From positions 480,001-544,000 of the forward strand of contig MTMD02000002.1 in NCBI GenBank assembly GCA_002010065.2: DNA of 64,000 nucleotides, given 5' to 3'. This document shows positions 35,201-64,000 of this stretch, piece by piece. Below the pieces are notes generated by a model that was given only the letters and a program-made list of their open reading frames with translations, searched no databases and was not told where the DNA came from. Both the position numbers and the translations under genes were made by a program. How positions within the stretch are numbered: the first letter of the stretch is position 1; each line of letters begins with the position of its first letter. The DNA comes from Candidatus Pyrohabitans jungbluthii. GTDB lineage: Archaea; Hydrothermarchaeota; Hydrothermarchaeia; Hydrothermarchaeales; BMS3B.

Positions 35201-35207
35201 TCTCAGC

Positions 35208-35267: not shown

Positions 35268-35361
35268 TAAATTACCCGAAACATTACCAATAGAAAAATC
35301 GCTGTTCCGTGCAAATCTTCCCTCGCTCATTTCGTGCTACCTCATTTATGGAAAGGAAAAA

Positions 35362-35436: not shown

Positions 35437-35493
35437 GTGGTGAGATTACATTCACTTTCACTCCTGCTGCTCTGTCAAAAGGGTGAGGATGAG

Positions 35494-44524: not shown

Positions 44525-45970
44525 TTAGTTTGGGCTCTTTTTGGTTATAAACTCCACTACCCGCTTCGCAGCCTCTTTCGCTTGACGCACGCAGTCGTTT
44601 ATTCCAACGCCGCGATAGGCGTTGCCCGTGAGCACCACACCAGGAAAATCGCGCAGCCTTGCCTCAATGCGCTCAAGGCGAGCTGCGTGTCCTACCAGGT
44701 ACTGAGGAATTGCCCGCTGATGGCGGTATATCCGCACCATCTCAGGCTCGGCGTCTATGCCCATGGTATCGCGAAGGTCTCGCCTGCACGCCTCGATGAG
44801 TTCCTCGTCGCTGAGCAGCGCCTTCTCCTCGGCGCGAGCGCCGCCCACCATCATGCGCAACAGCGCCTTGCCCTCAGGCGCACGGTGGTCGAACATGCTG
44901 GAATCCCACAGACAACCGAGTATGGTCTTGCCCTCCTCGTGGGGCACAAGGAATCCAAAGCCATTGAGGTCGTGCTTAATCTCGCTGCGCTCGTAGCCAA
45001 AGGCCACGACGGCGAGCTTTGTGTATGGAATACCACGTAGCTCCTCCGCAACTTTTGCGTCCAGGCTCTCAAGCATGGATGCGGCGGCATAGGCTGGAGC
45101 TGCCACAACCACGGCATCGCATGCTACACTTCCCCTCTTAGCGAGGTGCACTACGTAGCCGTCTTCTGAGCGCTCTATGCTCGCTGCCTCCTTACCCAGG
45201 AGGAGCTTATCCTCCAAGCGAGAGGCGAGGGTCTGGGTCAAGTACTCTATGCCCTCAGGGAATGAGGTGAGCACACCTCCGGGACCAGCGGCGCTTCCTG
45301 GCTTGTAGACCCGCTTTCCCTGCTTCTCGAGCTCAGCCAGCTTCTTCTTCATCTCCTTTGCCTTCTTCATGCGCTTGAGTGCAGCGCGCATCAGGCTTCC
45401 GTTGCCCTCCTTCTCAAGCGCAGCCATCACAGGGAAGGCGCTCTTCAGGCTCATTTTATATGGGTCGCCAGCGAAGACGCCGCTCACCATCGGCGCAACC
45501 AGCTTGCGCAGCGCTTCCTCGCCCAGGTGGCGCCTGACAAAGCTTGCAATGGTCTCATCCTCCTCCTTCGCTGGCTTTGTAAAGGGCTCAAGCGCCATGC
45601 GGAGCTTCCCCTTCCAGGAAAGTATGTCGGAGAAGAGGAAGCCCACAGCGCTCGCTGGTAGCTCACGCAGCCTGCCATCAAGGTATATGAAGCGTCTGCG
45701 CGCAATATCCTTGCTGGGCATTAAGCGAGAGCTTATCCCCAGGTCATCGCACAGCTCCAGAGTCCAGGGCTTGTTGTCCAGAAAGCCGTTGCTCCCGGCT
45801 TCTATCACATACCCCTTATAATGCTCACTCCTTATCTTCCCACCAGTGCGATTGGAAGCCTCCAGAAGGGTTACATCAACCTCTTCCCCAGCCTCTTGAG
45901 CGAACTTCCTAACATAAAAGGCGGCAGTTAAGCCTGATATTCCTGCGCCTATTACTGCAACGCTTTTCAT
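44525..45970 (-). CDS. hemY: Proto/coproporphyrinogen oxidase (HemY-type)
   Basis: GAGISGL, GFGFLVP, AIPQYLVGH, GNAYRGVGINDC. Confidence 0.92.
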   Translation of the reverse strand: MKSVAVIGAGISGLTAAFYVRKFAQEAGEEVDVTLLEASNRTGGKIRSEHYKGYVIEAGSNGFLDNKPWTLELCDDLGISSRLMPSKDIARRRFIYLDGRLRELPASAVGFLFSDILSWKGKLRMALEPFTKPAKEEDETIASFVRRHLGEEALRKLVAPMVSGVFAGDPYKMSLKSAFPVMAALEKEGNGSLMRAALKRMKKAKEMKKKLAELEKQGKRVYKPGSAAGPGGVLTSFPEGIEYLTQTLASRLEDKLLLGKEAASIERSEDGYVVHLAKRGSVACDAVVVAAPAYAAASMLESLDAKVAEELRGIPYTKLAVVAFGYERSEIKHDLNGFGFLVPHEEGKTILGCLWDSSMFDHRAPEGKALLRMMVGGARAEEKALLSDEELIEACRRDLRDTMGIDAEPEMVRIYRHQRAIPQYLVGHAARLERIEARLRDFPGVVLTGNAYRGVGINDCVRQAKEAAKRVVEFITKKSPN

Positions 45971-46265: not shown

Positions 46266-47204
46266 TTAATGTCTGGTCACCAGCTCAGCCAGCGCTTCTA
46301 TGAACTTTGGCGATGTGTTAAGGGACTCACTCCTTCTGAAGTGCTCTATCCCCAGCTTCCTCGCAAGGGCAGAGTACTGGAAGTCTATCTCATAAAGCGT
46401 CTCTATGTGGTCTGAGACGAAGCTCACGGGCACAATCAAAACGCTTTTTTTGCCCTCTTTTGCCAGCTGACGAAGTACCTCCTCTACGCTTGGGGAGAGC
46501 CACTTTCCGAAGCGAAGACCGCTCTGATACGCTAAGCGATAGCTCTCCAGCTTGGCTCGCTCAGCAACGCCCTCGCAGGTGGCCAGCACCTGCTCCTCAT
46601 ACGCATCTCGCTTGGCCATGCTCTCTGGCAGAGAGTGAGCCGAGAATATAACCTCCACCTCCTCGCCCCGCGGAAACCTTTCAATGGCTGCAGTCACCTT
46701 CTCCGCCAAGGCGTCGAGGTAGGGCGGAAAATCTCCCCATCTCTCAATATAGCTCACCTCAAGCTCTGCATTTAGCTCGGCGATGGCGCGCTCCATCTCT
46801 TTTATGCACGTGCCCGTCGTTGCGCCAGCGTAGTGGGGGTATAAGCTCAGCCCTACCACATCCCGTATCCCGGCTTTAAGCACATTCTCAATAGCTTCGC
46901 TGATGAAAGGCTTGGTATAGCGCATGCCCAGAAAAACCTCATAGCTTGAGCCAAGCCTTTTCTTGAGCGCTGAAGCCTGGGCTTGAGTAATCGCTGGCAG
47001 AGGTGAGCACCCGCCTATTAAAGCGTAGCGCTTTTTCACCTTCGGCGCGCGCAGGGTGGAGATTAACCAAGCAAGGGGCTTCTGGAGGGGCTTTGGGAAG
47101 GGCACAACCTCCGGGTCTGAGAAAAGGTTGTAGAGGAATGGCTTAACCGCCTCCAGCGAGTCGGGTCCACCCATGTAGAGAAGCACCACTGCCTTCTTGT
47201 ACAT
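46266..47204 (-). CDS. hemH: Ferrochelatase
   Basis: MGGP, YPHY, FSAHSLP, FVSDHIETLYEID. Confidence 0.93.
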   Translation of the reverse strand: MYKKAVVLLYMGGPDSLEAVKPFLYNLFSDPEVVPFPKPLQKPLAWLISTLRAPKVKKRYALIGGCSPLPAITQAQASALKKRLGSSYEVFLGMRYTKPFISEAIENVLKAGIRDVVGLSLYPHYAGATTGTCIKEMERAIAELNAELEVSYIERWGDFPPYLDALAEKVTAAIERFPRGEEVEVIFSAHSLPESMAKRDAYEEQVLATCEGVAERAKLESYRLAYQSGLRFGKWLSPSVEEVLRQLAKEGKKSVLIVPVSFVSDHIETLYEIDFQYSALARKLGIEHFRRSESLNTSPKFIEALAELVTRH

Positions 47205-48883: not shown

Positions 48884-50833
48884 ATGGATATAGGAGAGTC
48901 AAAAATTGCAGTTTGTGCAGCAATATTGCTCCTGCTCATGCCTCAAGTCTTTGCTGTGAGCTTTGATGAGATACGCAGCGCAGGCGAGAAGTACTCTAAG
49001 GGCGAGGCTATTATGGTGGACGGCCCCTTCTACGTTGAGGGCAAGCCCTACTACGTTGTTGAGTACATGTTTCAGCGGGAGAGGCGAGCGGCACTAGTTT
49101 ATGACCCCTCGACGGGGGACTTTGTAAAAGACCGCGAAACCATGCGGCGCGTCTTCGCCACCAAGGATTTAAAGTTATTAACGCTCATGGACCCGCTTTT
49201 TTACGCTATTGGAAACAGCTCAAAGATTCCACTTGCTGCCAAGTACGAAACCCAGAACGTGAGAAATTTTGCCTCCTTTTCAAGCATAACTCCCGAGGAG
49301 AGGGTGCTCCTTGAGAGGTTTCTCAGCGCCTATGAGCGTGTGATGGAGGACGTTAAGGAGGTCACAGAGCTTACAAATCAGATGCTTTACCCGGGCGATG
49401 CCTATCACTTCGAGTTCTCCCGCAGGGAGCCCAACATCGTGATTGAGGTTTACAACACCTCAGCGGAAGGCAACTACTCCTATGAGGGTTTCCAGAGGCT
49501 CATAGAAGCCTACGAAAGACTTTATGAAGACTACCTTGCCATGGCAGTGGCACTTAACCATTTTGCAGGCGGACTGGAAGACTACCCTCCAGGGGCGACG
49601 ATACGCGAAAAGTGGGGGGTAATTATTACAAGGGAGGATATAATTGAGGAAATCAGACTGATTAAGAAGAATGCGGATCACATACAGGCTGAAATTGAGC
49701 TGAGAAGGGGCATCCTTGAGTACGACTATGCAGACCTGATCTCCAAAGCATACGAGAGACTGGGCGTTGGCGAGAAAGAGGCTCCCAGAAAAGCTGTGTG
49801 TGGCCCCACTTTCATCTCCCTTTTACCTCTCCTTGCCCTAGCTCTTCGAAAGAGTAATGCAAGGCGCACTGCATTGGTTCTCCTCATTCTTCTGACGCTT
49901 ATCTCGGGCTATGCAGGTGCCTTTGAAGTTCCCTCTGCAGAGGAGCTCATATCCCAGAAGATTTCGCTGGAAGAAGTGAAGAATGTTTCGATCAAGATTG
50001 AGGCGCGCGGCATAACAGAAGCCGAAGCACGGGAGATTCTAGCAGGCTATCCGCTACTTCTCCGCGGGGAGAGCGTTGTGGTTAAAGGTCCCTTCTATGA
50101 AGGCGGCGTGCCCAACTATCTCTTCGAAATTTACCGCGGCGATGCTCCTACTGGCTACGCATTTATGGTTAACTGGGAAACAAAGCTTCTGGTAAGCAGC
50201 CAGCGCGACGCTTACCGTTTGCAGAAGGCGCATTTCCTTGCAGACCTGGTTAGGAGGCACCCTCTCTATGCGCAGGCAAACGCAGAAGCGATAGAAAGCG
50301 CTGCGCACAACGCAACTCTACCGCCTCTTGAGATTTTCCTCATGAATCTCTCTGAGAACATCAAGCTCGGAAAGAAGCTGGAAGAGGAGCTAATAAGGGA
50401 GCCGAGTTTTGACAAGGTGGTCAACCTTACTCAGGTCTACCTCCAGGGCTTCATTCTCATACACAACATAGAAGCCTTAACTTCGCCAGAAGAGGCATTA
50501 AACCTCACCTCAGGCTTCTCAGCAAATAAGCTTTACCTTGAAGCTTATGCGAGGGCTATGCGCGGTTTAAGCGCTGACGAGTACTTTGAGGCAAGGAGGG
50601 CGATGTACAGAGGGAGAACTCTAAACAGGATACCGCTGATGTATAAGCTTAGCGCCCTCGGCTTAAGGCCGTCGAAGGCGCAGGTGGTGCACGACCTTAC
50701 CAGCGACCTCATTTATGACAACATCTTTTTGTGGCGTCTTGGCAAAAAGGTAGACCCACGGCTATTTGCCAGACTTGCCTATAAAGAAGGCACTGCTTCA
50801 CTCCCCTCGGTGCTGGAGGAGGAGAGGGGGTGA
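48884..50833 (+). CDS. Secreted two-domain protein with internal CGP-CTERM-like signal and second signal peptide
   Basis: N-terminal signal (..PQVFA); two related GPFY domains; CGP-TM-basic-TM-AGA at 49799-49921. Confidence 0.65.
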   Translation: MDIGESKIAVCAAILLLLMPQVFAVSFDEIRSAGEKYSKGEAIMVDGPFYVEGKPYYVVEYMFQRERRAALVYDPSTGDFVKDRETMRRVFATKDLKLLTLMDPLFYAIGNSSKIPLAAKYETQNVRNFASFSSITPEERVLLERFLSAYERVMEDVKEVTELTNQMLYPGDAYHFEFSRREPNIVIEVYNTSAEGNYSYEGFQRLIEAYERLYEDYLAMAVALNHFAGGLEDYPPGATIREKWGVIITREDIIEEIRLIKKNADHIQAEIELRRGILEYDYADLISKAYERLGVGEKEAPRKAVCGPTFISLLPLLALALRKSNARRTALVLLILLTLISGYAGAFEVPSAEELISQKISLEEVKNVSIKIEARGITEAEAREILAGYPLLLRGESVVVKGPFYEGGVPNYLFEIYRGDAPTGYAFMVNWETKLLVSSQRDAYRLQKAHFLADLVRRHPLYAQANAEAIESAAHNATLPPLEIFLMNLSENIKLGKKLEEELIREPSFDKVVNLTQVYLQGFILIHNIEALTSPEEALNLTSGFSANKLYLEAYARAMRGLSADEYFEARRAMYRGRTLNRIPLMYKLSALGLRPSKAQVVHDLTSDLIYDNIFLWRLGKKVDPRLFARLAYKEGTASLPSVLEEERG

Positions 50834-50837
50834 AACC

Positions 50838-53417
50838 TTGAATAAGCCCTATCTTTTCTCCCTGAGCTTTGCAGCGGGTGCATTGCTAATAGCCTCGGCA
50901 AGGAAGCTCTCCTTTGTATTGCCCTATGAGGATCTCTCTTTGGCTCTGCTTTTGTTCCTCACCGCCCTTGGCTTTTTGTGTGGCTACTACCCAGGCGGGA
51001 CGATTTCAAAAAGAGGCTTGGCGTTCCTTTTTTTTGCAGCCTCTGCAGCACCTCTGGCTCTTGCAAGTCTTCCCAGCTTTATCGCGGACGGTTACTTAGG
51101 CTTGCTTACGGTGCTCTTCTTCTCAGCCATAGTGGGAAAACTCTTCCGCTTGCATATCTTCTCTGGCTCAGATGCAGAGGCTGTGCTCTGGGGCATAGCC
51201 TTAGCCTTTCTTGCATCGCTCTTTCTTCTGCCAAAGCCGGGTTTGGATACTCTTCTCATATTCGCCTCCATCGCCCTTGCATCCTCAGGTGCGTACCTGC
51301 TGTACTCCGGCAGGTATGAGGATGTGAAATTTGAAAGAGCCAGTTTTTCAGCAGAGGCGATGTCTGCCTTCCTCGTTGCGATGCTTTTCTCAACCTTTGC
51401 ATTCTCTTATTCAAGGGCTGCGGCATGGCTCATCGGCTACACCGGCATTACCTTCTTAAGTGCAGGTGTGGCATTTTTTATTGCAATAGCCGCCGGATAT
51501 TTCCTCGCCGCAAGGAGGCTGGGTTCCCTATCCATAACTGTAGCCCTCTCCGTCCTTCCTGCGGCACTCTTCGTGAGCCTTTTAGCCTTGCCGTACTTAT
51601 CGTCTGCCTTCTCTGGAGGCTCGGTGCTTCGTCTTCTTCCCCTTTTCCTGCTATCCTCCCTCCCAGCCGGAGTGGCTTTCGGGATTCTGACGTGCTCAAT
51701 TCCGGAGAGAATCCCAGACTCGCGTTTTGTGGTTATCTCCCTTGCCCTTCCATTTGGTTTGCTTCTGGACCTGCTCTTAGCTTCGTTTTTGGGTACTAAA
51801 ACAGAATTCTTCTTTATTCCCCTTGCTGCTCTTTCTCTAGCCTTTTTCACCGCCTTTAAGCGAGCGGCGCTCGGCTCACGCAGCGTGGTCACCTTCCTTG
51901 CCCTGAGCCTCCTTGCCGGAGGGGGCGCAGGTATTGTAGCCAGCGACGCTTTTGCCCAGCCGCCCCAGTTAGCCTACCAGCACGAAAGCATGGGTGAGCT
52001 GCTCCAGGTTTTCAGGGAAGACGGAGTAACCAGCCTTAAGATAAATGGATATGAGGCTGCGAGTGATAGGGAGGCTCAGCGGGAAGCAGAAGCTTTCGCG
52101 GGATACGCTGCGATGTTTCTCCATGGTGGCGAGGCTGAGAAGGTGCTTATGCTTGGTATAGGCGGCGGCTTTGCTTTGCGGGCGGTGGAGTATTTTGATG
52201 TTGAAGAGATACATGCGGTAACCAGCGCCGCGCAGGCTGAGGCGGTGGCAGCTTTCTTCTCAGCAAAGAATGAGCTAGCCCTTGAGGATGAAAGGCTTTC
52301 CTTCAGAAAGGGAAGCGCCCTGAGATACCTCCTGCGCACTCCCGAAAGCTATGACGTAATCATCTCCCTGCCTCCCCCTCCTTGGAATTCTAACAACCCT
52401 GCCTACACCAGAGAGTTCTATCTCCTTGCAGCGCAGCATCTCAAGCAAGAGGGAGTCTTTGTCACGAGGCTTCGAAACCTTGAGTATGGGGAGGAGGAGT
52501 TCAAGGTTGCGATAAGAACCTTTATGGATATCTTTCCCCACTCCAGCATGTGGTATGCCGATGGTGATGTAATTCTCGTTGGAAGCGAGGCACCAATGAA
52601 TATAAACTACACGCACATTCGGAAGGTTATTGTTAACAGCCCAGCGAAGCCCGGTTACAGGACCCTATTTAAGGGTGCAACTTATACAGATTCAAACCTT
52701 GTGGATGAGTTCCTGAGCAATCTTTTAATGAGTGCCTCGGAGCTTTATGATTACTCCTATGAGGCGGAGGTAAATACCATATCATCGCCGGTACTTGAAT
52801 TTTCAACCGTGCGCAACCTTTATGTCAAGCCAAATAAAACGCTGGTGGGCAACGTACTCCTCTACAAACTTTCGAGGCAGGGAAATCCCCTTATCTACCC
52901 TGCCCTTGAGGGGCTCTACTCGCGGGATGGCTATAATATAAGGCTCCACTTCCTTAGCCTTGAGGCGAGCTTTGACGAGGACTGGAGTGAAGATTTTGTT
53001 GGCTACGTTTTCCGCTACCGGCCTTTAGCCACCCCTAAGGGTGTAAAGTACCTAAAGTCCTACACGAAGCGAGCCACTTTTGTGAGAGGCAATGAAAGCC
53101 TCAGATTCTACGCCTTCGAGTCCCGTGCATATTCCCTCAGCCGCGGTATGGCAACTCGGGAGGAGATACAGCAGGAGGTTAGGCAAATCCTTGAGGACAG
53201 ACTTTCCTTTCTGAACCAGAGGAAGACAAAGGAAAGTGTGGTTCTGGTTGGCGAGGAGGAGGGCATACTCATGCACGGCGCGCGGGAGGCTTCGCAGGAG
53301 AAGAGCATTCTTCTGGGGTGGTTCTGCAGAGAAAACAAGGAGATATACGTGGTGAGCTACGAGTATTCTGGGAAGGAAAAGCAGGTGATACCTGCAAGCA
53401 TTGCCTGCGTGCATTAA
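50838..53417 (+). CDS. Membrane-fused spermidine-synthase-like protein with C-terminal extension
   Basis: Multi-TM N-terminal half, VLMLGIGGG, YDVIIS, YTREFY; TTG start after GGGGTGA. Confidence 0.7.
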   Translation: MNKPYLFSLSFAAGALLIASARKLSFVLPYEDLSLALLLFLTALGFLCGYYPGGTISKRGLAFLFFAASAAPLALASLPSFIADGYLGLLTVLFFSAIVGKLFRLHIFSGSDAEAVLWGIALAFLASLFLLPKPGLDTLLIFASIALASSGAYLLYSGRYEDVKFERASFSAEAMSAFLVAMLFSTFAFSYSRAAAWLIGYTGITFLSAGVAFFIAIAAGYFLAARRLGSLSITVALSVLPAALFVSLLALPYLSSAFSGGSVLRLLPLFLLSSLPAGVAFGILTCSIPERIPDSRFVVISLALPFGLLLDLLLASFLGTKTEFFFIPLAALSLAFFTAFKRAALGSRSVVTFLALSLLAGGGAGIVASDAFAQPPQLAYQHESMGELLQVFREDGVTSLKINGYEAASDREAQREAEAFAGYAAMFLHGGEAEKVLMLGIGGGFALRAVEYFDVEEIHAVTSAAQAEAVAAFFSAKNELALEDERLSFRKGSALRYLLRTPESYDVIISLPPPPWNSNNPAYTREFYLLAAQHLKQEGVFVTRLRNLEYGEEEFKVAIRTFMDIFPHSSMWYADGDVILVGSEAPMNINYTHIRKVIVNSPAKPGYRTLFKGATYTDSNLVDEFLSNLLMSASELYDYSYEAEVNTISSPVLEFSTVRNLYVKPNKTLVGNVLLYKLSRQGNPLIYPALEGLYSRDGYNIRLHFLSLEASFDEDWSEDFVGYVFRYRPLATPKGVKYLKSYTKRATFVRGNESLRFYAFESRAYSLSRGMATREEIQQEVRQILEDRLSFLNQRKTKESVVLVGEEEGILMHGAREASQEKSILLGWFCRENKEIYVVSYEYSGKEKQVIPASIACVH

Positions 53418-54806
53418 TTATTCTGCGAGGAGCTTGTCACCGAATAGTTTGCGGCTCTCCTCTCTTAGAAGCTTCCGGTGGCTTAGGTAAAGGAACTCTG
53501 CAGTATCGTCAGTTATAATCGGTGTGTCCTCCTCAACCTCAATGGGATAATGGGGTATGTAGAAGGGCTCGGGTGAGGCGTAAAGTATTGAGATGTCTTT
53601 TTGAGCAGGAAGCTGGGCATATACGTAGGGAAACACCTGCTTCAGAGTTTTGTAAACAGCCTTCGCCAGCTTTGCCCTGCGAGGATCTCCAGGAGTCACC
53701 ACCACAACCACGCCCTTTTCGCTTAGCTTGCCTTTCACATCCTCAAGGGCCTCTCTGCTTAAAAGATTAAAGGCGGGAGCAGAGAAGGTATCTATTACGA
53801 TAAGGTCGTACTTTTTCTGTGTACCCCTGATATAGCGTCTTCCGCTGTCTATGGTTACACTACCTGAGTAGCTGAAGTATTTTTTAGCGACCTCAGCTAA
53901 GCCTGCGTCAGCCTCAATCACATCAAGGGCTAAGCCTGCGTCTTGCAGGTTTCTCGCCAGGGTGCCACCCCCCAGGCCTATTAAAAGCCCTCGTTCCACA
54001 TCTGGAATCACATCCGTATATATTCTATTAGTATATTCAAAGCAGGAACCTCGGCTGGAGAGGTCCATGCAGGAGCGCACCTCCCCGTTGACCAGGAGGT
54101 AACGCTTTGCCTCCTGCTCAATCACCTTTATCTGTCCCACCGCACTTTCCTCCTCGTGGACTATCCGCGGGTCCTTCGCTGGCATTAAGTTGAAGGTGTA
54201 GTAGTTGTGGGCAACCAGAATAAAAAACAGGGCTACAGCAAGCTCAGCTTTTTTCATGGTAACATAACCAATAGCTGCAAGCACCATTAGCAAAATGGCA
54301 GAGAGTGTGAGTATGTGTGAAATATTTAGGGCAGGGAGGTAACCAATTACAATTGCAGCAGAGAGTGAGCCCACGCCAGCGATGCCCAAGAACCTTCCTG
54401 CAGCCTCACCCGCCTCTCCTTTGCTGAGCCTTATGCAGTAGGGCAAAACCATGGTGAGGAGGGTTATGGGCAGAGCGAAGAGGAGCAGAGAAGACATTAA
54501 AGCGCCTGCTCTAACTCCCAAAGGCGACGTCAGGAGAAGAACCTTTACCTTCACCAGAGGTATGAGCAGCACAAGTACGCCCGCCAGGAATACTATGAGG
54601 TAAAGCGCTCCCTCCCCGGGCAGGCGGCGGGCAAGCTTCCCTCCCACAAAGTAGCCTAGGGAGATTGAGGCCAGGGCTGCGTATAAAAAGGATGACCATA
54701 CATAAAGCGTAGCTCCATAGAAGGGTGCAAGTATGCGCATCCCCGCTATAGTGAGGGTTATTAGAACGGCGCCGGTGAAGAAGGCGGTAATGTAGAGTTT
54801 TTTCAT
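53418..54806 (-). CDS. Membrane-fused spermidine-synthase-like protein
   Basis: RILAPFYGATLYVW, LIGLGGG, KYDLIVIDTF, IITDD. Confidence 0.75.
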   Translation of the reverse strand: MKKLYITAFFTGAVLITLTIAGMRILAPFYGATLYVWSSFLYAALASISLGYFVGGKLARRLPGEGALYLIVFLAGVLVLLIPLVKVKVLLLTSPLGVRAGALMSSLLLFALPITLLTMVLPYCIRLSKGEAGEAAGRFLGIAGVGSLSAAIVIGYLPALNISHILTLSAILLMVLAAIGYVTMKKAELAVALFFILVAHNYYTFNLMPAKDPRIVHEEESAVGQIKVIEQEAKRYLLVNGEVRSCMDLSSRGSCFEYTNRIYTDVIPDVERGLLIGLGGGTLARNLQDAGLALDVIEADAGLAEVAKKYFSYSGSVTIDSGRRYIRGTQKKYDLIVIDTFSAPAFNLLSREALEDVKGKLSEKGVVVVVTPGDPRRAKLAKAVYKTLKQVFPYVYAQLPAQKDISILYASPEPFYIPHYPIEVEEDTPIITDDTAEFLYLSHRKLLREESRKLFGDKLLAE

Positions 54807-55630: not shown

Positions 55631-55691
55631 AAAAAAGTTTAATAATATTTAATCATATTAGCAAAGTGTGTATAGGATAGGTGTGGGCCAC

Positions 55692-56693
55692 ATGTCGTTG
55701 TCATGGAATAAAGGCATTGTACTGATAGTGTTGCTTCTAAGCATCTCAGTGGTTTATGCAGCTGACCAGTTCTATTCGATTAAAGGTGGCCCCACTTACA
55801 ACGGCTCAAGCGATGGCTGGGTTATGGTTTGGGATGCAGGAGCAACTCAGGACAGCTACCTTAGAGTTGCCTTCTCTGTTAACCGCCCAGCCTACAAGCT
55901 TGGAAAGACTGTTTCGGTAATGATACGTACCGACGGCTATTACTCCAGAGACTCTGGCTGGTGGTATACAGAGGGTGGCGCAAGTGTTGATTATGTAAAG
56001 TTTTACTATCCGAACGGCACACTTATAAAGCAGCTCAGCGGTACCACTGGCAGCGACGGCGTGTGGAAGGACGACACCGCCTTAATGCTCACAAAAGACA
56101 TGCCCATGGGCACCTACAAGGTGGAGGCGAGCGTAACTAAAGGCACGACAACTGTGGGGGATGATGCTGGAGGCTACATGACCATCTACTTCGACGTCGG
56201 AGGAGAGCTTCACCTCACGGTTAATACAAATGCAAGCACAGATAGCAGAGGAAGGTTTGTAGCAGCAAACGGCTCGGTGGTTAGAATTTATGGGCAAATC
56301 CTTCAGCCCAATGGCGACGTGTTCAGCAGCACCACAGTACCTTCGGGAAGTGCTGTTACTGTAAGGCTTGGAATAGTTAAGCCCGACGAGAGCTATACAT
56401 ACATGACCCAAACAACAACCACTGGCGACTATTCCTTTGATGTTCTCCTTGACCAAGTGGGACATTACTTCTTTGTTGTTACCGCCAACTGCACAGTAGG
56501 CGGTCCGATTACTGGCATCAAGTACGTTGTATGTGAGGGAAGAAATCAGACAAATATTATTTCAACGGGAGAGTGGCCAGCGGCGGGGGGCTCCTTCGCA
56601 TCCTCTCCTCTCGCAATTAGCGTGGCGGTGATTCTTGCAATAATATCAGCTTACTACCCAGGGGGTATGCTGTATAGGCGGCTCAGGAAGTAA
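55692..56693 (+). CDS. Secreted beta-rich (Ig-like) surface protein with C-terminal membrane anchor
   Basis: Signal peptide ..SVVYA; Thr/Gly/Tyr-rich beta strands; C-terminal TM and RRLRK. Confidence 0.7.
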   Translation: MSLSWNKGIVLIVLLLSISVVYAADQFYSIKGGPTYNGSSDGWVMVWDAGATQDSYLRVAFSVNRPAYKLGKTVSVMIRTDGYYSRDSGWWYTEGGASVDYVKFYYPNGTLIKQLSGTTGSDGVWKDDTALMLTKDMPMGTYKVEASVTKGTTTVGDDAGGYMTIYFDVGGELHLTVNTNASTDSRGRFVAANGSVVRIYGQILQPNGDVFSSTTVPSGSAVTVRLGIVKPDESYTYMTQTTTTGDYSFDVLLDQVGHYFFVVTANCTVGGPITGIKYVVCEGRNQTNIISTGEWPAAGGSFASSPLAISVAVILAIISAYYPGGMLYRRLRK

Positions 56694-56715: not shown

Positions 56716-59700
56716 ATGAGAAGAGGGCTGGTGTTAGTCTTTACTTTAGCTGTGCTTTTCTCAGTTTCGCCTGTGCATGCCAAGGTTACAAACTGGAACG
56801 TCAACATAGAGTTCAGAGATACCGCCAACAATATAATAACAAGCATACAGCCCGGGCAGACCTTCTATGTGAACATAAGCGTCACCGCCTCCAGCGACAC
56901 CGGCGAAACCTATCCCATGGCGAAGCTGAGCATCCCCCCGGGCTTTACCATAATACCCAAAAAGATAAACGACGGCACCTACGACATTGAAGAACACAGC
57001 GTTCATTTTTACAGTCTTGAAGCAGATGGAGACTGGTATGTTACCGGCTCCAGCCTGGCAGATGGCACAAACTGGAACACAGGCTGGGTTGTTAAGGCTG
57101 ACGACTACTTAATTCCCGGGAAAAACTACACCTTCTTTATTGCGATGTATGACGAGGACACCACAGGCGGTACCAAAACGAGTTACTATGAAAACTTCCC
57201 TGCCTACTACCAAGGCTGGGGTAATAAGTTTTACAAGGATATTTACGTCCAGCCCACTATTTCCACCCTAACGGTAAGTGTGAACTCGACCACCTACGAC
57301 ATAGGTGGAGGCGTAACCGTAGAGGGCTTCAAGATAGGCGACACCGTGCTCATAAGCGGCACCACTGAACCTAACGCTAATGTAAACATTACTATTTGGA
57401 AGCCCCAGTACACCATTGGCGCAAAAATCACAACCACAGCGGATGGTAGTGGGAACTTCCAGGCAACCTACACCCTGACGGAAAACTGGGACAGGCGCGG
57501 TATATATACCGTTGAAGTGATAGCCTACAAGGCTCCCAACCTCATAGCAAGAACCAAAATAAACTTCTACGTTGGCGACAACATAGCTCAGAACGATAAA
57601 GCTTTCAGAAGCAAAAGGGTTTCCCCTCCTGACATAAGCTACTCCTGCGGCGATTGTCATACCGCCGTATTCTTCAACTACAGCGTTATGAGCCAGGCAG
57701 ACCAGATTAATCCTGGCAGTGAAGGGACACCTGATCCACATAAGGAGCATCCTTACCGCTCACCCCCAACAGAGAATTGCGACTGGATTCATTGGATTCA
57801 CGACCCTCTGCCGGAATTTAATGAAAGCAGACTGGCTTCCGGTGTGTTGTTAAAGCAGGATCGCGTTACTGCTGGAAGAAGCTACACACAGCCTGGAGAG
57901 ATTACCCACCTTGCCGAGTGGGAGAGGGATGATGACATACCTCCACCCTATGCGATTACCGAGTTTTATGCAGAGCCATTAAATTATCCTGACTCCGCTG
58001 GTGAGTGGACTGCTTGCAGTATGTGCCACCTGAATGTTCGTGGCTACTCTTACGTGAGGACTGACAACACTCTCACTTGCACACCAAAGGGCAACAACCG
58101 TCCGGGATGTCACGTTGTTGAGAGGGAGGGAACCCATAAATACACACCTTCCTGCCAGAACTGCCACGTTCCTTCGGGAAAGAGCTTGAAGGATGTTGAG
58201 CTTCCCAACTGCCTCAAGTGCCATGCTATTAAAAACTATTGGGAATATGGCGTAGGCACTTCCCACGCCACTGACAGTAGTGGCAGTGATATTACAGATG
58301 CTGTAATGGCAGATGATGAGAATGTTTTTAGATTGGATACTTCGGGGCAGTATGTTGAGGCAAATATCTCCGCTCCCTTCAGAGAGAAAGCCCTTCAGGT
58401 TATAAAAATCGGAGTGAACTGGAACGGCACAACCAGCGGAGGTGCGGGCAATCAGCAGATAGAGCTTCAGTACCTCGACGTAAATGGTATATGGCAGTCC
58501 GCAGGGTTATCTCCTGCTCGGACTACGCCTTTTGAAGCGACAGATTACTTCATTATTAAGAACACCTCAGACCCGAGCTTAACAAATCCCGCCGGGCTGA
58601 ATGAGCACGGTGAGATTGTGGTAAGGGTTGTATATCCAACCGATGGCAATTCTAAAGAATTTGCTGATATTGATTATATCTTCATGGACATTCTAGCGGA
58701 TGATTCAATTGCCCTCGAAGGTGCCCACGAGGGTGTGGAGTGCCTCAACTGCCACGGGCACAGCCACAACGCAACCAGGCAAATCTACTGTACCTCCTGC
58801 AAGGGTCAGAAGCTTGCCCCCGAGGGTGAGCACGTGTGGCAGAAGAAGAACGCCACCGGCGGGGATATAATAGAGGGGGTGAACACCTCCCTGTGGTGTA
58901 CAGAGTGCCACGGTGGATATGGGCACACCTCAATAACAAATACGCCTTCCTGCGCCAAGTGCCACAATCCGAGCGTTGCCAACAAGTCTTGGAAGCGGTA
59001 TTCTTATACCGAAATTCCGCCGTGGGGTCTGGACAACATCCATGGCAGAGCTAACCTCTTCTGCGAGGATTGTCACATTGATAATCACAACGTCACATTG
59101 CCCAGCTGCAACGCAGAGGGCTGCCATATCGCCAATATTTCTGATACTGTACCCAGCTCGGGCTACTACGCCACCTGGGACGACTCCACAAAGACTCACG
59201 ACCCGAGCCACAGCAGCGGTACAAACTATACCATAGAGATGCACGCATACAATGCCAGTGGTTGGTATGGCAAGAGTGACAAGAAATGGGGTGCCACCTG
59301 CGATGAGTGTCACAACAACCATACAAGTGAGGTTTACCTCAAGCTTGAGAACAAGTGGATAAATGCGAGCACCGATTCTATGGTACACTCCACCAACAGA
59401 AGTATAGCCGAGATGGTGCCCTACAATGAGAGTTATGCTTCCTACGATGCAAAGTGGTGTGTTGACTGCCATCAGGATAGAGGAAGCCACTATGGGTGGA
59501 GTTGTCTTGACTGCCACTATCGTGATGACGGCGACGACACGTTTAAGGAGCCTGCCTTCCACAGCGCTAAAATCGCAAAGTCTGGTGGGGGCGGCCCCAA
59601 CTGTATAGGTTGCCACGACATTGGAGGCAGCGCCACCCACATTATAAACGTCACCGCCTTAAATCTGAGCGTTCATGGCGGAATAGTTACCAATTCAAGT

Positions 59701-62700
59701 ACTTATTCCACGTATGGCTTGAATCAGAGCTGCTACGCGTGCCACACCAGTGATGGTCAGGCACCTGATGACATGGGCGACCGTTACAACAACCCGTGGA
59801 CATGTGTTGACTGCCATACCAGCGGAGGTGCAAAGGCTGGTGCCTATGGTGCGCCCATAGTTAGTGAGCACTATCGCAGTGGAGATAATATAACTGCTGT
59901 TGGTTATGCCAGCACCGACGTACTCAGCTGCCTTGCATGCCACCAGAATGCCACTGATGCCAGCCTGAGGGACTTCATGCTCATCCCTGCCAACGATCCA
60001 AATGAGGGTAGCTCCGTCTCAGATGTTGATGGAGATGGGATTAAGGGTGGCAACATAAGCTTCTACCACTATGGTAAGGATAACAGCTGGTTGAGAACAG
60101 GGCCTGGTGGCAGCACTTCCTGTCAGTTCTGCCATCAGAACAACAGCATCTTCACTGCAGTAATGAGCGATTCCACTCACAACAGCATGCAGAACCACAC
60201 TGACAATGCTGTTGTAGACTGTACTGACTGTCATGGTACTGGCTGGATACACAATGCATCGCTCACCAAGCCTGTGCTTACTGCGAGTGATGACAGCGTA
60301 TGTACAAGCTGTCATACAACCAAGAGCCGGCACAACAGCGCTGGCAACCGCGCCAATGCTGAGGAGGTAAAGTGTATTGCCTGCCACACTGGTGATGTAA
60401 ACACCTACCAGCCTAGAGACATCCACGGCATAAAGATTATTAACTCCTCGGGTGGTTATGAACAGTGGGGCACCTCTTCTCCAGCGACCTGTGTCACCTG
60501 CCACCAGAGCAACCTTGGTGGCAAATTTGCGAACGCTTCGCAGGTACCTTCACCGCTCAATCACAGCCAGGATCCCATTGCTGGGCAGAAGTGGAACAAG
60601 ACTTCGCAGGCTTACTGGACTCCTGGCGATGATCAGGAGGCGTGCAACTACTGCCATGGCGATTCCAGGCACGAGGCTAATGCACTGGGCAATGCCTCAG
60701 CTATAGAGGATTCGCTGAGCAGGAACGCCACTGACCTCAGCACCACCAGCTGGTGTGCTGGTTGCCACTACTCGGAGGCGAGCAACTACAACGGCACTGC
60801 CTTCTCGCCTCAGCCGCCCGAGATAATCACCTGGGGTGGCACAGCCAATGATGGCACAAGCTTCCAGAACCACAGCGGCTACCTCTCCAGTGGATACGAC
60901 GATAGTGTGTGCACCTCCTGCCACAGTGGTAGCACCTCTTCGACTGCGCTGTATCCGCACAACGTTTACGAGGGCGTCGCAGGCGGTCCCAACTGCATAA
61001 GCTGCCACGACATAGGTCAGAGTGGTGCTCCCAAGCACATCAACTTCACCGCTGTAAATTCAAGCGAGAATATTCACTTTAATCTGAACAATGCCACTCC
61101 TGTGAGTTATGATCCTGTTAACAGGATTTGCCTTGGCTGTCACAGCAGCGATGGAAGCGAGCCTGCGAGTGGACATCCCACAGGCTACAAGTCGCCTTAT
61201 ACCTGCGTAGACTGCCACGTTAACTCGCCACCTGCCCATGCAAGCAATGCTCCGCAGGTAAGGGAGCACTACCGCAATGGCAGCGAGGTGAAGGCGGTTA
61301 CGGACGCAGCCAGCGACGTGCTCAGCTGCATTGCGTGCCACCAGAACTCTACCACAGCAAATACAATGCTAATACCAGCCAACGATCCTGACTATGGCAG
61401 CTTTGATGCCGATGGAGACGGAGTTAGTGGCGGCAACATAAGCGCCTCTCACTATGGCAAGAAGCGCACTGATATTGTCAGTGGAGGCGTAACAAGCTGC
61501 GCCTACTGCCACCAGAACGCTGGAAGCGAGTTCGCTGGTGTGTTCAACAAGAGCGGTAATGCAGACATGCTTAACCATACTGACAACACCGTGGTAGACT
61601 GCACAGACAGTAACTGCCACTCCTCTGGCAGAATTCACGACTCTGCCTTAACCAAGCCGCCTACGATGTACAACAACACCTACTGTACCACATGCCACAC
61701 TGGCAAGGAGCTTCACGGCAGTAATACCATAACAGGAATAAGTCCACAGGGCAGCGGAGTCAACTGCTATGATTGCCATGCCGATGAAAACAAAGAGGTT
61801 GCTCCCATTCACGGCATAAGCTACATAAACACCACAGGCGGCTTCACAGTTTGGGATAACTCCAGTGCAGCCACCTGCAAGACCTGCCACCAGAGCAGCG
61901 TTGCTGATGCTGCTATAGGAGCAACTGCGCCCAAGATACGCTCACCGCTTCACCACAGCGATGATCCCATAGCCGGATGGAAGTGGAACGCCTCTGGGTA
62001 CTGGAATGACACCAACAGTGTTGAGTACGATGACTCCTGCTACTTCTGCCATGGCAGCGTGAAGCACAGCGCCAACGCCATGGGCTTAATAGTTACCAAC
62101 AACGTGACTGGGAGCAACTCCTACAACACCTCCAGCTTCGACACAAGCTACTGGTGCGCCAACTGCCACTACAGCAACAGCGCTGACAACTATGCAGGCG
62201 ACCTCTTCACGCCTAAAGTGGTTGAGATAACCTCCTGGCCAGTGAACTCAAGCGATGGGCAGCAGGAGTTTGTGAACCATACCAGTTACATCTCATCAGG
62301 TCATACTGATAGCGTTTGTAAGGGCTGCCACGGTGGCTTTGCACCTGAAACCACGGGCGACTTTGCCCACGACGTGGCTATAGGTGCAGCCGGCGGCCCC
62401 AACTGCATAAGCTGCCACGATATTGGCGCCAACCCAAGTGTAACCCACGTGATTAATGTCTCGGCCCTGCAGCAGGGTGTGCACGGCAATATTGATACCC
62501 CAGCGGATGACGCTACATATGGCTTGAATCAGAGCTGCTACGCGTGTCACACCAGTAATGGTCAGGCACCTCCAGAAGGAGATATGGGCGACCGGGCCTT
62601 TAACCCGTGGACATGTGTTGACTGCCATACCAGCGGAGGTGCAAAGGCTGGTGCCTATGGTGCGCCCATAGTTAGTGAGCACTATCGCAGTGGAGATAAT

Positions 62701-64000
62701 ATAACTGCTGTTGGTTATGCCAGCACCGACGTACTCAGCTGCCTTGCATGCCACCAGAATGCCACTGATGCCAGCCTGAGGGACTTCATGCTCATCCCTG
62801 CCAACGATCCAAATGAGGGTAGCTCCGTCTCAGATGTTGATGGAGATGGGATTAAGGGTGGCAACATAAGCTTCTACCACTATGGTAAGGATAACAGCTG
62901 GTTGAGAACAGGGCCTGGTGGCAGCACTTCCTGTCAGTTCTGCCATCAGAACAACAGCATCTTCACTGCAGTAATGAGCGATTCCACTCACAACAGCATG
63001 CAGAACCACACTGACAATGCTGTTGTAGACTGTACTGACTGTCATGGTACTGGCTGGATACACAATGCATCGCTCACCAAGCCTGTGCTTACTGCGAGTG
63101 ATGACAGCGTATGTACAAGCTGTCATACAACCAAGAGCCGGCACAACAGCGCTGGCAACCGCGCCAATGCTGAGGAGGTAAAGTGTATTGCCTGCCACAC
63201 TGGTGATGTAAACACCTACCAGCCTAGAGACATCCACGGCATAAAGATTATTAACTCCTCGGGTGGTTATGAACAGTGGGGCACCTCTTCTCCAGCGACC
63301 TGTGTCACCTGCCACCAGAGCAACCTTGGTGGCAAATTTGCGAACGCTTCGCAGGTACCTTCACCGCTCAATCACAGCCAGGATCCCATTGCTGGGCAGA
63401 AGTGGAACAAGACTTCGCAGGCTTACTGGACTCCTGGCGATGATCAGGAGGCGTGCAACTACTGCCATGGCGATTCCAGGCACGAGGCTAATGCACTGGG
63501 CAATGCCTCAGCTATAGAGGATTCGCTGAGCAGGAACGCCACTGACCTCAGCACCACCAGCTGGTGTGCTGGTTGCCACTACTCGGAGGCGAGCAACTAC
63601 AACGGCACTGCCTTCTCGCCTCAGCCGCCCGAGATAATCACCTGGGGTGGCACAGCCAATGATGGTACCACCTTCAAGAATCACAGTGAATTTGGCATTT
63701 CGCCGTCATCATATACTGACGATAAGTGCACCTCTTGCCACAGTGGTAGCACTTCTTCGACTGCGCTGTATCCGCACAACGTTTACGAGGGCGTCGCAGG
63801 CGGTCCCGAATGTACCACCTGTCACTATATAGGCAGCGCCAATCCCAACATCAACGTCACCGCCTTCTCTCTGGGTGTGCACGGCAAGATAGTTACCAAC
63901 TCCAGCACCTTCTCCACCTATGGCTACAACCAGAGCTGCTGGGCGTGCCATGCCACAGATGGTAGTGTAACTCCCAGTGGTCATCCTGATAGGCAGAAGA
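56716..64000 (+). CDS. Giant secreted multiheme cytochrome c (partial, >2,428 aa, continues past the window end); not in ORF track
   Basis: Uninterrupted frame from ATG 56716; signal peptide MRRGLVLVFTLAVLFSVSPVHA; 48 CxxCH plus CX4CH x2, CX9CH and CxxCK by manual translation. Confidence 0.93.
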   Translation, partial: MRRGLVLVFTLAVLFSVSPVHAKVTNWNVNIEFRDTANNIITSIQPGQTFYVNISVTASSDTGETYPMAKLSIPPGFTIIPKKINDGTYDIEEHSVHFYSLEADGDWYVTGSSLADGTNWNTGWVVKADDYLIPGKNYTFFIAMYDEDTTGGTKTSYYENFPAYYQGWGNKFYKDIYVQPTISTLTVSVNSTTYDIGGGVTVEGFKIGDTVLISGTTEPNANVNITIWKPQYTIGAKITTTADGSGNFQATYTLTENWDRRGIYTVEVIAYKAPNLIARTKINFYVGDNIAQNDKAFRSKRVSPPDISYSCGDCHTAVFFNYSVMSQADQINPGSEGTPDPHKEHPYRSPPTENCDWIHWIHDPLPEFNESRLASGVLLKQDRVTAGRSYTQPGEITHLAEWERDDDIPPPYAITEFYAEPLNYPDSAGEWTACSMCHLNVRGYSYVRTDNTLTCTPKGNNRPGCHVVEREGTHKYTPSCQNCHVPSGKSLKDVELPNCLKCHAIKNYWEYGVGTSHATDSSGSDITDAVMADDENVFRLDTSGQYVEANISAPFREKALQVIKIGVNWNGTTSGGAGNQQIELQYLDVNGIWQSAGLSPARTTPFEATDYFIIKNTSDPSLTNPAGLNEHGEIVVRVVYPTDGNSKEFADIDYIFMDILADDSIALEGAHEGVECLNCHGHSHNATRQIYCTSCKGQKLAPEGEHVWQKKNATGGDIIEGVNTSLWCTECHGGYGHTSITNTPSCAKCHNPSVANKSWKRYSYTEIPPWGLDNIHGRANLFCEDCHIDNHNVTLPSCNAEGCHIANISDTVPSSGYYATWDDSTKTHDPSHSSGTNYTIEMHAYNASGWYGKSDKKWGATCDECHNNHTSEVYLKLENKWINASTDSMVHSTNRSIAEMVPYNESYASYDAKWCVDCHQDRGSHYGWSCLDCHYRDDGDDTFKEPAFHSAKIAKSGGGGPNCIGCHDIGGSATHIINVTALNLSVHGGIVTNSSTYSTYGLNQSCYACHTSDGQAPDDMGDRYNNPWTCVDCHTSGGAKAGAYGAPIVSEHYRSGDNITAVGYASTDVLSCLACHQNATDASLRDFMLIPANDPNEGSSVSDVDGDGIKGGNISFYHYGKDNSWLRTGPGGSTSCQFCHQNNSIFTAVMSDSTHNSMQNHTDNAVVDCTDCHGTGWIHNASLTKPVLTASDDSVCTSCHTTKSRHNSAGNRANAEEVKCIACHTGDVNTYQPRDIHGIKIINSSGGYEQWGTSSPATCVTCHQSNLGGKFANASQVPSPLNHSQDPIAGQKWNKTSQAYWTPGDDQEACNYCHGDSRHEANALGNASAIEDSLSRNATDLSTTSWCAGCHYSEASNYNGTAFSPQPPEIITWGGTANDGTSFQNHSGYLSSGYDDSVCTSCHSGSTSSTALYPHNVYEGVAGGPNCISCHDIGQSGAPKHINFTAVNSSENIHFNLNNATPVSYDPVNRICLGCHSSDGSEPASGHPTGYKSPYTCVDCHVNSPPAHASNAPQVREHYRNGSEVKAVTDAASDVLSCIACHQNSTTANTMLIPANDPDYGSFDADGDGVSGGNISASHYGKKRTDIVSGGVTSCAYCHQNAGSEFAGVFNKSGNADMLNHTDNTVVDCTDSNCHSSGRIHDSALTKPPTMYNNTYCTTCHTGKELHGSNTITGISPQGSGVNCYDCHADENKEVAPIHGISYINTTGGFTVWDNSSAATCKTCHQSSVADAAIGATAPKIRSPLHHSDDPIAGWKWNASGYWNDTNSVEYDDSCYFCHGSVKHSANAMGLIVTNNVTGSNSYNTSSFDTSYWCANCHYSNSADNYAGDLFTPKVVEITSWPVNSSDGQQEFVNHTSYISSGHTDSVCKGCHGGFAPETTGDFAHDVAIGAAGGPNCISCHDIGANPSVTHVINVSALQQGVHGNIDTPADDATYGLNQSCYACHTSNGQAPPEGDMGDRAFNPWTCVDCHTSGGAKAGAYGAPIVSEHYRSGDNITAVGYASTDVLSCLACHQNATDASLRDFMLIPANDPNEGSSVSDVDGDGIKGGNISFYHYGKDNSWLRTGPGGSTSCQFCHQNNSIFTAVMSDSTHNSMQNHTDNAVVDCTDCHGTGWIHNASLTKPVLTASDDSVCTSCHTTKSRHNSAGNRANAEEVKCIACHTGDVNTYQPRDIHGIKIINSSGGYEQWGTSSPATCVTCHQSNLGGKFANASQVPSPLNHSQDPIAGQKWNKTSQAYWTPGDDQEACNYCHGDSRHEANALGNASAIEDSLSRNATDLSTTSWCAGCHYSEASNYNGTAFSPQPPEIITWGGTANDGTTFKNHSEFGISPSSYTDDKCTSCHSGSTSSTALYPHNVYEGVAGGPECTTCHYIGSANPNINVTAFSLGVHGKIVTNSSTFSTYGYNQSCWACHATDGSVTPSGHPDRQK
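59590..64000 (+). repeat. Tandem 12-heme modules starting at 59590, 60982, 62392 and 63799 (last one partial)
   Basis: Each starts GGP-x-CxxCH; lengths 464, 470 and 469 aa; 59791-60854 and 62602-63665 appear identical (offset 2811). Confidence 0.9.

Follow-up and report, generated by a model that had tools for sequence, protein, structure and literature searches.

Here we describe a giant modular multiheme cytochrome of the archaeon Candidatus Pyrohabitans jungbluthii, the gene for which begins near the end of a 64,000-nucleotide stretch of the genome (contig MTMD02000002.1, positions 480,001 to 544,000, or C2:480001-544000; hereafter the window) and continues beyond it. The full protein has 3,294 amino acids (aa) and 69 CxxCH heme-binding motifs, and consists of a heme-free N-terminal region, a heme-bearing head, and five tandem copies of a conserved 12-heme module. 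Together with the cytochromes encoded downstream it probably forms an extracellular or cell-envelope electron conduit, with a reach that is tuned by the number of modules; an extracellular conduit is the best reading of the locus, and is one that we infer.

The frame opens with an ATG at 56716 and runs for 2,428 codons without a stop to the end of the 64-kb window, with 48 CxxCH motifs in this part, exactly as the initial annotation had it; on the contig it ends at C2:546600 (window-equivalent 66600, the numbering being carried on past the window). Three CX3-4CH motifs stand beside the 69 CxxCH, at aligned heme positions, and the candidate heme sites number 73 once a single CxxCK is counted. 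By chance, few such motifs would be expected—when the same residues were shuffled 1,000 times, CxxCH averaged 0.34 per shuffle and never exceeded 3. Pfam scores are well above the curated cut-offs for Cytochrome_C7 (208.8 bits; cut-off 24.8), MtrC-MtrF_II-IV (184.2; 30), and Cytochrom_c3_2 (107.6; 25). Residues 1-23 look like a Sec signal peptide, and N-X-S/T sequons number 106, compared with 46.5 +/- 6.2 in 500 shuffles (maximum 63), an excess that fits an archaeal surface glycoprotein. Motif number, Pfam scores, and an export signal together with cytochrome c maturation genes in the genome place the protein among the multiheme cytochromes; along with the modules, these features bear out the initial picture of a secreted giant cytochrome. 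A protein cluster 99% identical to it is already present in the public protein collection.

From residue 950 onward the protein is made of five tandem modules of 463-471 aa with 12 motifs each, the boundaries of which were drawn from piecewise self-queries of the giant protein. The window holds three complete modules and the start of a fourth, as first noted, and the contig shows five in all; the array closes the protein, without a further domain after the fifth module (M5). When the five copies are aligned their 12 heme motifs fall in register, with profile scores of 553-812 bits. A wider alignment of 66 rows was built from 62 non-redundant foreign copies (of 80 full-length ones) and four of the five own copies, M3 being omitted as a near-duplicate of M1, and the 12 heme-motif positions are invariant across these 66 copies from many lineages. 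Ten histidines outside the motifs are also conserved (eight of them in 100% of the copies, the other two in at least 95%), which fits bis-histidine (bis-His) electron-transfer hemes at no fewer than 10 of the 12 sites.

Each module contains c7, c3, and MtrC/MtrF pentaheme-domain stretches according to Pfam, the MtrC-MtrF_II-IV profile matching the giant protein in 10 stretches. Profile searches of the PDB with the module gave weak, partial matches to MtrA (6R2Q chain A, E 1.7e-7), OcwA (6QVM, 1.7e-6), and MtrF (3PMQ, 0.019), and further weak matches to reaction-centre cytochromes and NrfB—all of these are electron-transfer cytochromes. No catalytic family appeared among the Pfam and PDB matches; judged by sequence, the modules resemble electron-transfer families and not catalytic ones. 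If most hemes are bis-His ligated, as the conserved histidines suggest, the protein would move or hold electrons rather than catalyse a reaction.

The spacing of motifs speaks to how the modules are joined. At the junctions, the closing motif of a module and the opening motif of its successor are 28-34 residues apart, and within modules the spacing is 24-64 residues (median 37); junction spacing is thus as short as spacing inside the modules, leaving no heme-free linker between them. The best match to the MtrC/MtrF pentaheme domain (residues 2335-2487) straddles M3 and M4, taking in one motif at the end of M3 and four at the start of M4. Both observations, taken from the sequence, would favour a single wire.

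The array also carries a trace of recent change. M1 and M3 are 93% identical as proteins, and their cores share an exact repeat of 1,064 base pairs (bp), the flanks of which are 67-87% identical; M2 and M4 are 57% identical overall. An exact repeat between diverged flanks points to recent duplication or gene conversion between modules. Public short-read contigs from three runs of different studies break at the repeat edges, and the depth of the repeat is 1.6-2.5x that of the flanks (1046.6 vs 666.5 and 609.8 in X3; 779.1 vs 313.7 in X4; 519.1 vs 208.9-286 in X1), as expected for two copies per genome. The unique parts of the M1/M2/M3/M4 junction regions are each covered by public contigs at 99% identity or better.

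The module occurs well beyond this gene, as the building block of the known giant cytochromes in Methanoperedens and in anaerobic methanotrophic archaea (ANME) of the ANME-2 group. A collection of species-representative genomes yielded 68 loci with the module, at 30-43% identity over its whole length, mostly in Methanoperedens, Methanoperedenaceae, and ANME-2. Other loci belong to Archaeoglobus sp. JdFR-37, Archaeoglobi JdFR-42, Methanocellales-labelled metagenome-assembled genomes (MAGs), and one Chloroflexota-labelled genome—the last of these (L040, JBBITV010000154.1; 39% identity) reflects either a binning error or a transfer to bacteria. Long-protein relatives number 16, the best being a 5,599-aa Methanoperedens protein with 113 CxxCH (33% identity, 73% query coverage); the other Methanoperedens/ANME-2 giants have 40-77 CxxCH, and several bear the S-layer domain PF07752. 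Single Methanoperedens frames contain up to five full modules in tandem, and across relatives the module is iterated 1 to 5 or more times.

Closer to the host, 10 of 60 relatives have a module match, including two of the four same-genus genomes. The two same-genus frames have 1,737 codons, 40 CxxCH, and two full modules plus one partial module (G003), and 1,590 codons, 34 CxxCH, and two full modules (G001), compared with 3,294 aa, 69 CxxCH, and five full modules here. A same-class frame (G036) has 1,179 codons and 26 CxxCH, with one full module and partial matches, and a same-order frame (G013) has 3,924 codons and 67 CxxCH, with two full and several partial modules. The two same-genus loci are syntenic with this one and their giant genes sit well inside contigs, with genes on either side; two modules against five supports the earlier suggestion that length varies with module number. 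These proteins are 37-41% identical to the giant in the modules, and residues 1-670 have no counterpart in them. The giant gene therefore appears as a fast-changing member of a conserved locus: gene order is kept, the modules are 37-41% identical, and the N-terminus has few relatives.

The N-terminal region and head are far more restricted than the modules. Ahead of the first heme motif, residues 24-310 are heme-free as initially described and are probably a beta-sandwich of Ig/MG2-like type; the Ig-like part of that description is backed by sub-threshold Pfam matches (Big_6, Fn3) and by a language-model Atlas lead to archaeal MG2/Ig 'biofilm-associated' surface proteins (score 0.86-0.87). The N-terminal 926 mature residues have just 10 relatives at E <= 0.001 among 1.84 billion representatives, and pieces 24-300, 300-520, 520-665, and 665-950 gave no phmmer match at E <= 1e-3 against 15 giant relatives and the open reading frames (ORFs) of 73 loci. 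By sequence, then, the N-terminal part and head seem lineage-restricted.

An interrupted region of 11 CxxCH had also been reported, and these motifs do lie within residues 311-930, along with a CX4CH, on both sides of a motif-free gap from 499 to 676. The insertion in this gap is present in two of three relatives (P0138 and P0139) and missing from the third (P0140). The head further contains a CTSCK, overlooked before; in the three relatives aligned there its column holds CxxCK in P0138 and P0139 and CxxCH in P0140, marking residues 692-696 as a heme site where lysine replaces histidine. Residues 660-949 have no PDB relative, including no NrfA structure, and the NrfA family is absent from the Pfam matches of the giant protein, which does not qualify as NrfA-type. 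The coordinates of these features, and of the gene cluster to which the giant gene belongs, are summarized in Table 1.

Table 1. Features of the giant cytochrome gene and its cluster (positions in the window; positions beyond 64000 are window-equivalent).
Feature	Position	Strand	Basis or remark
Giant multiheme cytochrome, in-window part (residues 1-2428)	56716..64000	+	ORF call and translation
Putative signal peptide, residues 1-23 (MRRG, hydrophobic core, VHA before K)	56716..56784	+	inspection of translation
Heme-free N-terminal region, residues 24-310	56785..57645	+	first heme motif at residue 311
Head, residues 311-949 (11 CxxCH, 1 CX4CH, 1 CxxCK)	57646..59562	+	motif count
Motif-free insertion in head, residues 504-675	58225..58740	+	177-residue gap between motifs at 499 and 676
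CTSCK, residues 692-696, candidate lysine-ligated heme site	58789..58803	+	motif search and alignment
Module M1, residues 950-1420, 12 heme motifs	59563..60975	+	self-comparison, alignment
Exact 1,064-bp repeat, copy 1 (core of M1)	59791..60854	+	100% identity in 100-nucleotide windows
Module M2, residues 1421-1888, 12 heme motifs, one of them CX4CH	60976..62379	+	self-comparison, alignment
Module M3, residues 1889-2359, 12 heme motifs	62380..63792	+	self-comparison, alignment
Exact 1,064-bp repeat, copy 2 (core of M3)	62602..63665	+	100% identity; 2,811 bp downstream of copy 1
Module M4, start (M4 is residues 2360-2830)	63793..64000	+	rest of M4 beyond window
Module M5, residues 2831-3294	M4 and M5 together 63793-66597	+	contig continuation
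Gene 1: up341, 341-aa protein	55668..56693	+	ends 22 nucleotides before giant gene
Gene 2: giant cytochrome	56716..66600	+	
Gene 3: 182-aa cytochrome	66667-67215 (L007:12668-13216)	+	directly downstream of giant gene
Gene 4: 180-aa tetraheme cytochrome	67285-67827 (L007:13286-13828)	+	
Gene 5: S26-type signal peptidase			Pfam 27.9 bits, cut-off 22.9
Gene 6: 7-heme cytochrome			
Gene 7: polytopic membrane protein			no family
Gene 8: second membrane protein			paralogue of gene 7, no family
Gene 9: 5-heme cytochrome			
Gene 10: small lipobox-like protein			
Gene 11: 569-aa Ig-like surface protein			C-terminal helices

The giant gene is the second of 11 co-directional genes (55668-74470) that include several further cytochromes. 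The 180-aa tetraheme protein matches chain A of 8E5G at E 5.6e-14 over residues 4-174, with all four CxxCH aligned; 8E5G is AvECN, the nanowire subunit of A. veneficus (PMC12954529, figure legend). The 182-aa and 180-aa cytochromes are paralogous to each other and to the N-terminal half of the 7-heme protein, which matches the tetraheme at E 9.1e-13. Ahead of the giant gene, up341 has a signal-like segment at its N-terminus and a hydrophobic anchor at its C-terminus (hydrophobic segments at 9-27 and 305-323), as well as a beta-rich part; it has no Pfam family at threshold, and weak homologues are encoded at the corresponding place in G001 (E 5.7e-8) and in G013 (E 9.5e-10). It is a candidate surface-anchored partner of the giant cytochrome. 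The 297-aa polytopic membrane protein of the cluster has neither a Pfam family nor a usable Atlas match, and Pfam scans of the cluster genes detected no hydrogenase or uptake-specific partner.

The order up341, giant cytochrome, two AvECN-like genes, S26 peptidase, and membrane protein is conserved in both same-genus loci; G001 additionally retains the 5-heme cytochrome and the p165 protein, and each of the two genomes has a p569 homologue. In 10 of 73 loci (Methanoperedens, Archaeoglobi JdFR-42, Methanocellales-labelled, and other MAGs) a module-bearing gene has an AvECN-like neighbour, and in one Methanosarcinales locus the module-bearing gene is accompanied by an AvECN-like gene, a peptidase, and a membrane protein. 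Among the 60 host relatives, 15 have AvECN-like genes, including all four same-genus genomes.

Surface and membrane proteins also border the cluster. Just upstream, window positions 50766-53417 (+) and 53418-54806 (-) encode polytopic membrane proteins of 883 and 462 aa with a spermidine/spermine-synthase-like domain. Convergent with the cluster end is a gene (window-equivalent 74964-79898, L008:1965-6899, minus strand) for a surface protein of 1,644 aa that combines NosD/beta-helix, PKD, and several bacterial Ig-like domains and also has a C-terminal helix; type C giants of ANME carry a similar beta-helix domain fused to their heme-bearing part.

The host genome, 99.95% complete, comprises 1.99 Mb on 15 contigs. 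Its 16S rRNA is archaeal (1,527.7 bits with the archaeal model vs 1,139.3 with the bacterial one), and the nearest named relatives of its elongation factor EF-2 are Ca. Pyrohabitans sp. (92%), archaeon BMS3Bbin15 (81%), and Hydrothermarchaeaceae/-ales MAGs (72-77%); Ca. Pyrohabitans is filed under Hydrothermarchaeota by NCBI. The window itself contains an archaeal RNA polymerase operon in which the B and A subunits are split, along with EF-2, EF-1alpha, and the ribosomal proteins S7 and S12. Bacterial contamination or misbinning is excluded, since the giant gene shares its 620-kb contig with this archaeal operon. A search of the genome for McrA gave no match, which at this completeness excludes a methanotroph host; we regard the archaeon as non-methanogenic. 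The window also includes a 111-nucleotide tRNA match, probably intron-bearing (15367-15477, +), and a 5S rRNA gene with two tRNAs adjoining the RNA polymerase operon (35126-35616, -).

Cytochrome c maturation genes, the presence of which bears on the initial proposal, are there: ccmC, two ccmE, and two full-length ccmF. The second CcmF paralogue (C10:61293-63674) and second CcmE paralogue (C8:187135-187563) might serve unusual motifs or very large apoproteins. Seventeen frames of the genome have two or more CxxCH, the runner-up to the giant having 10. Outside the cluster there are two candidate quinol:cytochrome c oxidoreductases: an NrfD-like gene with a 5-heme cytochrome gene about 1.2 kb away, and a gene for cytochrome b that adjoins a 3-heme gene.

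Archaea are usually credited with a siroheme-dependent route to heme. The window holds heme-synthesis genes of protoporphyrin/coproporphyrin type, in an archaeon: ferrochelatase (46269-47204, -), a HemY-like flavin amine oxidase (44528-45970, -), a B12-binding radical SAM enzyme (42977-44230, +), and, apart from these, HemD (2611-3348, +). At 37749-40227 (-) lies a gene like subunit I of COX1-family heme-copper oxidases (160.9 bits), beside a UbiA-family prenyltransferase that is possibly a heme O synthase; in a presumed anaerobe the COX1-like protein might reduce nitric oxide or act as an oxidase that scavenges oxygen.

A mechanism can be proposed from these observations. The apoprotein would be exported by Sec, loaded by the Ccm system with about 72 (72-73) covalently bound hemes, heavily glycosylated, and then placed outside the membrane, where anchored proteins of the cluster may attach it. 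The mature protein, 3,271 residues plus hemes and glycans, would by our estimate exceed 350 kDa. Outside the membrane it would form a long chain of closely packed bis-His hemes. Known linear multiheme proteins have roughly 1 nm per heme, a spacing at which an array stretched into one line would measure several tens of nanometres. Electrons would enter from small cytochromes and from the membrane quinol:cytochrome c oxidoreductases encoded elsewhere in the genome, with the two AvECN/MmcX-type tetrahemes and the 7-heme and 5-heme cytochromes of the cluster as partners, and would leave to Fe(III)/Mn(IV) minerals, a partner cell, or an AvECN-type filament. The number of modules would set the reach, changing through intragenic duplication or gene conversion. 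A bolder version, which we think rather unlikely as a whole, holds that the giant cytochrome and AvECN-type subunits are one conserved apparatus of Hydrothermarchaeota, Archaeoglobi, Methanoperedens, and their relatives: the array would be an envelope-spanning stalk from membrane oxidoreductases to a cytochrome nanowire or mineral, its length adjusted on short evolutionary times by duplication and gene conversion of the 465-aa module, and the lysine-heme head would be its business end.

Several points weigh against a continuous extracellular wire of adjustable length. The conserved distal histidines are 10 for the 12 hemes of each module. At full length the protein shows no C-terminal anchor—by inspection there is no transmembrane helix, the end (...FMHNITN) being polar and free of hydrophobic stretches—and neither the S-layer domain PF07752, in a Pfam scan of the whole protein, nor a recognisable sorting signal was found in it. 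An AlphaFold2 model of M1 reached a predicted local distance difference test score (pLDDT) of 80.3 and a predicted template modelling score (pTM) of 0.71; searched against the PDB with Foldseek, it matched nothing at E <= 0.001 (the best hits, at 1.9, being nitrite reductases with a template modelling score of ~0.1), and VIA-align against 48,161 chains found none at Z >= 2. Heme-free models of cytochromes are mostly coil, so the absent fold match is no evidence of a new fold. A two-module model from a 26-row alignment (pLDDT 46.2, pTM 0.30) was too poor to give junction geometry. As for copy number, no public contig bridges the repeat zone, and this assembly is therefore the sole basis for the count of five; the MAGs that hold the two-module relatives are fragmented, so that near-identical repeats could have collapsed in them, and the giants of G003 and G001 may be replaced paralogues and not strict orthologues. 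Lastly, given the conserved CxxCK, there is a small chance that the head holds a heme that binds a ligand or catalyses a reaction.

Alternative explanations must be considered alongside these points. The same protein could carry electrons in the reverse direction: it would take them up from a partner cell, a mineral, or a cathode-like surface, and Wood-Ljungdahl or carboxydotrophic metabolism would use them. Bis-His multiheme chains are reversible conductors, and the sequence sets no direction; further, the neighbouring tetrahemes belong to the AvECN/MmcX family, with electron import having been proposed for MmcX (PMC11176372). Published hypotheses for the phylum instead favour iron reduction or syntrophy (PMC6759336, PMC6775978), and with a cluster lacking hydrogenase or uptake-specific partner we consider uptake unlikely. 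Another possibility is that the protein is mainly an electron store, an envelope redox capacitor that buffers an intermittent acceptor supply. Some 72 hemes in one chain would hold much charge, the orientation of the protein is not fixed by an anchor or S-layer domain, and the single-module model is compact enough for its pTM; yet the gene is clustered with filament-type cytochromes and a dedicated signal peptidase, and linear iteration without linkers suits a conduit better. A mainly storing role is hence very unlikely in our estimation, although storage and conduction are compatible.

The lysine-type motif raises the possibility of a head that acts as a terminal reductase, fed by the modules, in which the CxxCK heme reduces a soluble substrate such as an oxyanion of nitrogen or sulfur. 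In NrfA-type nitrite reductases the active-site heme has a CxxCK motif, here CxxCK is kept in two of the three aligned relatives, and the second CcmF and CcmE could serve the unusual motif much as NrfE does in E. coli. On the other side, one relative has an ordinary CxxCH, there is no sequence similarity to NrfA or any solved enzyme, Pfam yields electron-transfer families alone, and sixty feeder hemes for one catalytic site would be unprecedented—a catalytic head strikes us as highly improbable. The five-module length might also be partly an assembly product, with the repeat threaded or polished into two places and a true length that differs. The perfect identity of M1 and M3 over 1,064 bp between diverged flanks, the lack of a bridging contig, and the two-module same-genus loci would all agree with this; the breaks and raised depth in three runs, the coverage of the unique junction parts, and a reading frame that stays open through the whole array make it quite unlikely. 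An extracellular conduit with a module-dependent reach remains the explanation that we prefer.

Giant archaeal cytochromes are the proposed route of electron exit in methane-oxidising and metal-reducing archaea, and their large size hampers study; to our knowledge, none has a solved structure. The conserved 465-aa dodecaheme unit is a building block common to three or more archaeal lineages, and is tractable to express, solve, and measure. A five-module copy on a long contig of a near-complete genome, paired with a two-module counterpart in the same genus, provides a natural test of whether module number sets reach. In addition, the repeated adjacency of AvECN-type genes joins two themes that have been separate: single-chain giant cytochromes and polymerised cytochrome filaments.

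The initial annotation supposed that the lineage might not be known for extracellular electron transfer; in fact it has already been proposed for Hydrothermarchaeota (PMC6759336, PMC6775978), so that such a gene and its proposed role in the phylum are not new. In the portions of the giant-cytochrome literature that were available, the definition and iteration of the module, the within-genus difference in copy number with its exact repeat, the CxxCK head, and the AvECN linkage were not found, and a literature search gave no title or abstract describing the repeated dodecaheme module. For subseafloor Hydrothermarchaeota, the published idea of mineral respiration or of electron exchange with a partner is strengthened, not proven.

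Known systems resemble this one to different degrees. GSU1996 of Geobacter sulfurreducens is a dodecaheme 'nanowire' cytochrome of four c7-type domains and roughly 320 aa. It shares with the module the twelve hemes per unit, the c7-type Pfam matches, and the idea of a single-chain heme wire; however, it is shorter than the ~465-aa module and is not among the PDB matches at E <= 0.1 with the module profile. The Shewanella proteins MtrC/MtrF/OmcA and MtrA and Thermincola OcwA share the MtrC-MtrF II/IV profile, weak PDB matches, and the general job of moving electrons through or past the cell envelope. The likeness to MtrC/MtrF is limited to short pentaheme-type stretches and does not extend to the four-domain plan of MtrC/OmcA-type decahemes, in which two beta-barrel and two pentaheme domains hold ten hemes in a staggered cross, and unlike MtrC/OmcA the giant has no beta-barrel partner, lipoprotein signal, or domain I/III, and has seven times more hemes.

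The AvECN/MmcX family is represented here by homologues—the two genes downstream and the N-terminal half of the 7-heme protein—and not by the giant itself. AvECN consists of separate small proteins that polymerise non-covalently in A. veneficus, whereas the giant is one covalent chain with no detectable similarity to it; filaments of the AvECN-like proteins encoded here are a prediction from homology. Suzuki et al. (2024) place the family in several archaeal orders, Hydrothermarchaeota not being among those named in the available parts of the paper, and propose that MmcX, highly expressed in situ, imports electrons in a member of the Methanocellales that is not a methanogen (PMC11176372).

For ANME and Methanoperedens, giant cytochromes of 20-113 hemes are well established in the genomics literature, where they have been proposed to mediate extracellular electron transfer (PMC7327174; PMC9012536). 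These giants, found in Methanoperedenaceae and ANME-2/-3 (multiheme cytochrome (MHC) types A, B, and C in ANME, with up to 86 and 113 motifs), likewise contain homologous tandem dodecaheme modules. MHC types A and B have the S-layer domain PF07752/DUF1608, a heme motif in its linker, and a C-terminal transmembrane helix; type C has a large heme-free N-terminal domain of pectin-lyase type and neither the S-layer domain nor the helix (Chadwick et al., 2022). The protein described here differs from types A and B in lacking PF07752 and the helix, and its plan is closest to type C, with a heme-free N-terminus; unlike type C it has no beta-helix/pectin-lyase match in Pfam, its N-terminal lead being of MG2/Ig type. 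The host also differs from Methanoperedens and ANME in its phylum and its lack of mcrA, and the N-terminal 926 residues have no match in the giants compared. A gene neighbourhood is shared—Chadwick et al. (2022) report a signal peptidase and an integral membrane gene adjoining ANME MHC-B (PMC9012536), and both kinds of gene are found at this locus.

Within the phylum, Kato et al. (2019) reported Hydrothermarchaeota cytochromes with 25, 27, 34, and 67 CXXCH and proposed iron reduction or syntrophy (PMC6759336), a suggestion also made by Carr et al. (2019; PMC6775978); Table S2 of the former predicts the cytochromes of Juan de Fuca Ridge MAGs to be in the cell wall or extracellular. The available parts of that paper give motif counts and a localisation prediction only, without describing modules, copy-number change, the head, CxxCK, or the AvECN link. 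Its cytochromes are nonetheless of the same phylum, kind, and proposed role as the giant described here, and the same-order G013 frame, with 67 CxxCH, carries the same modules.

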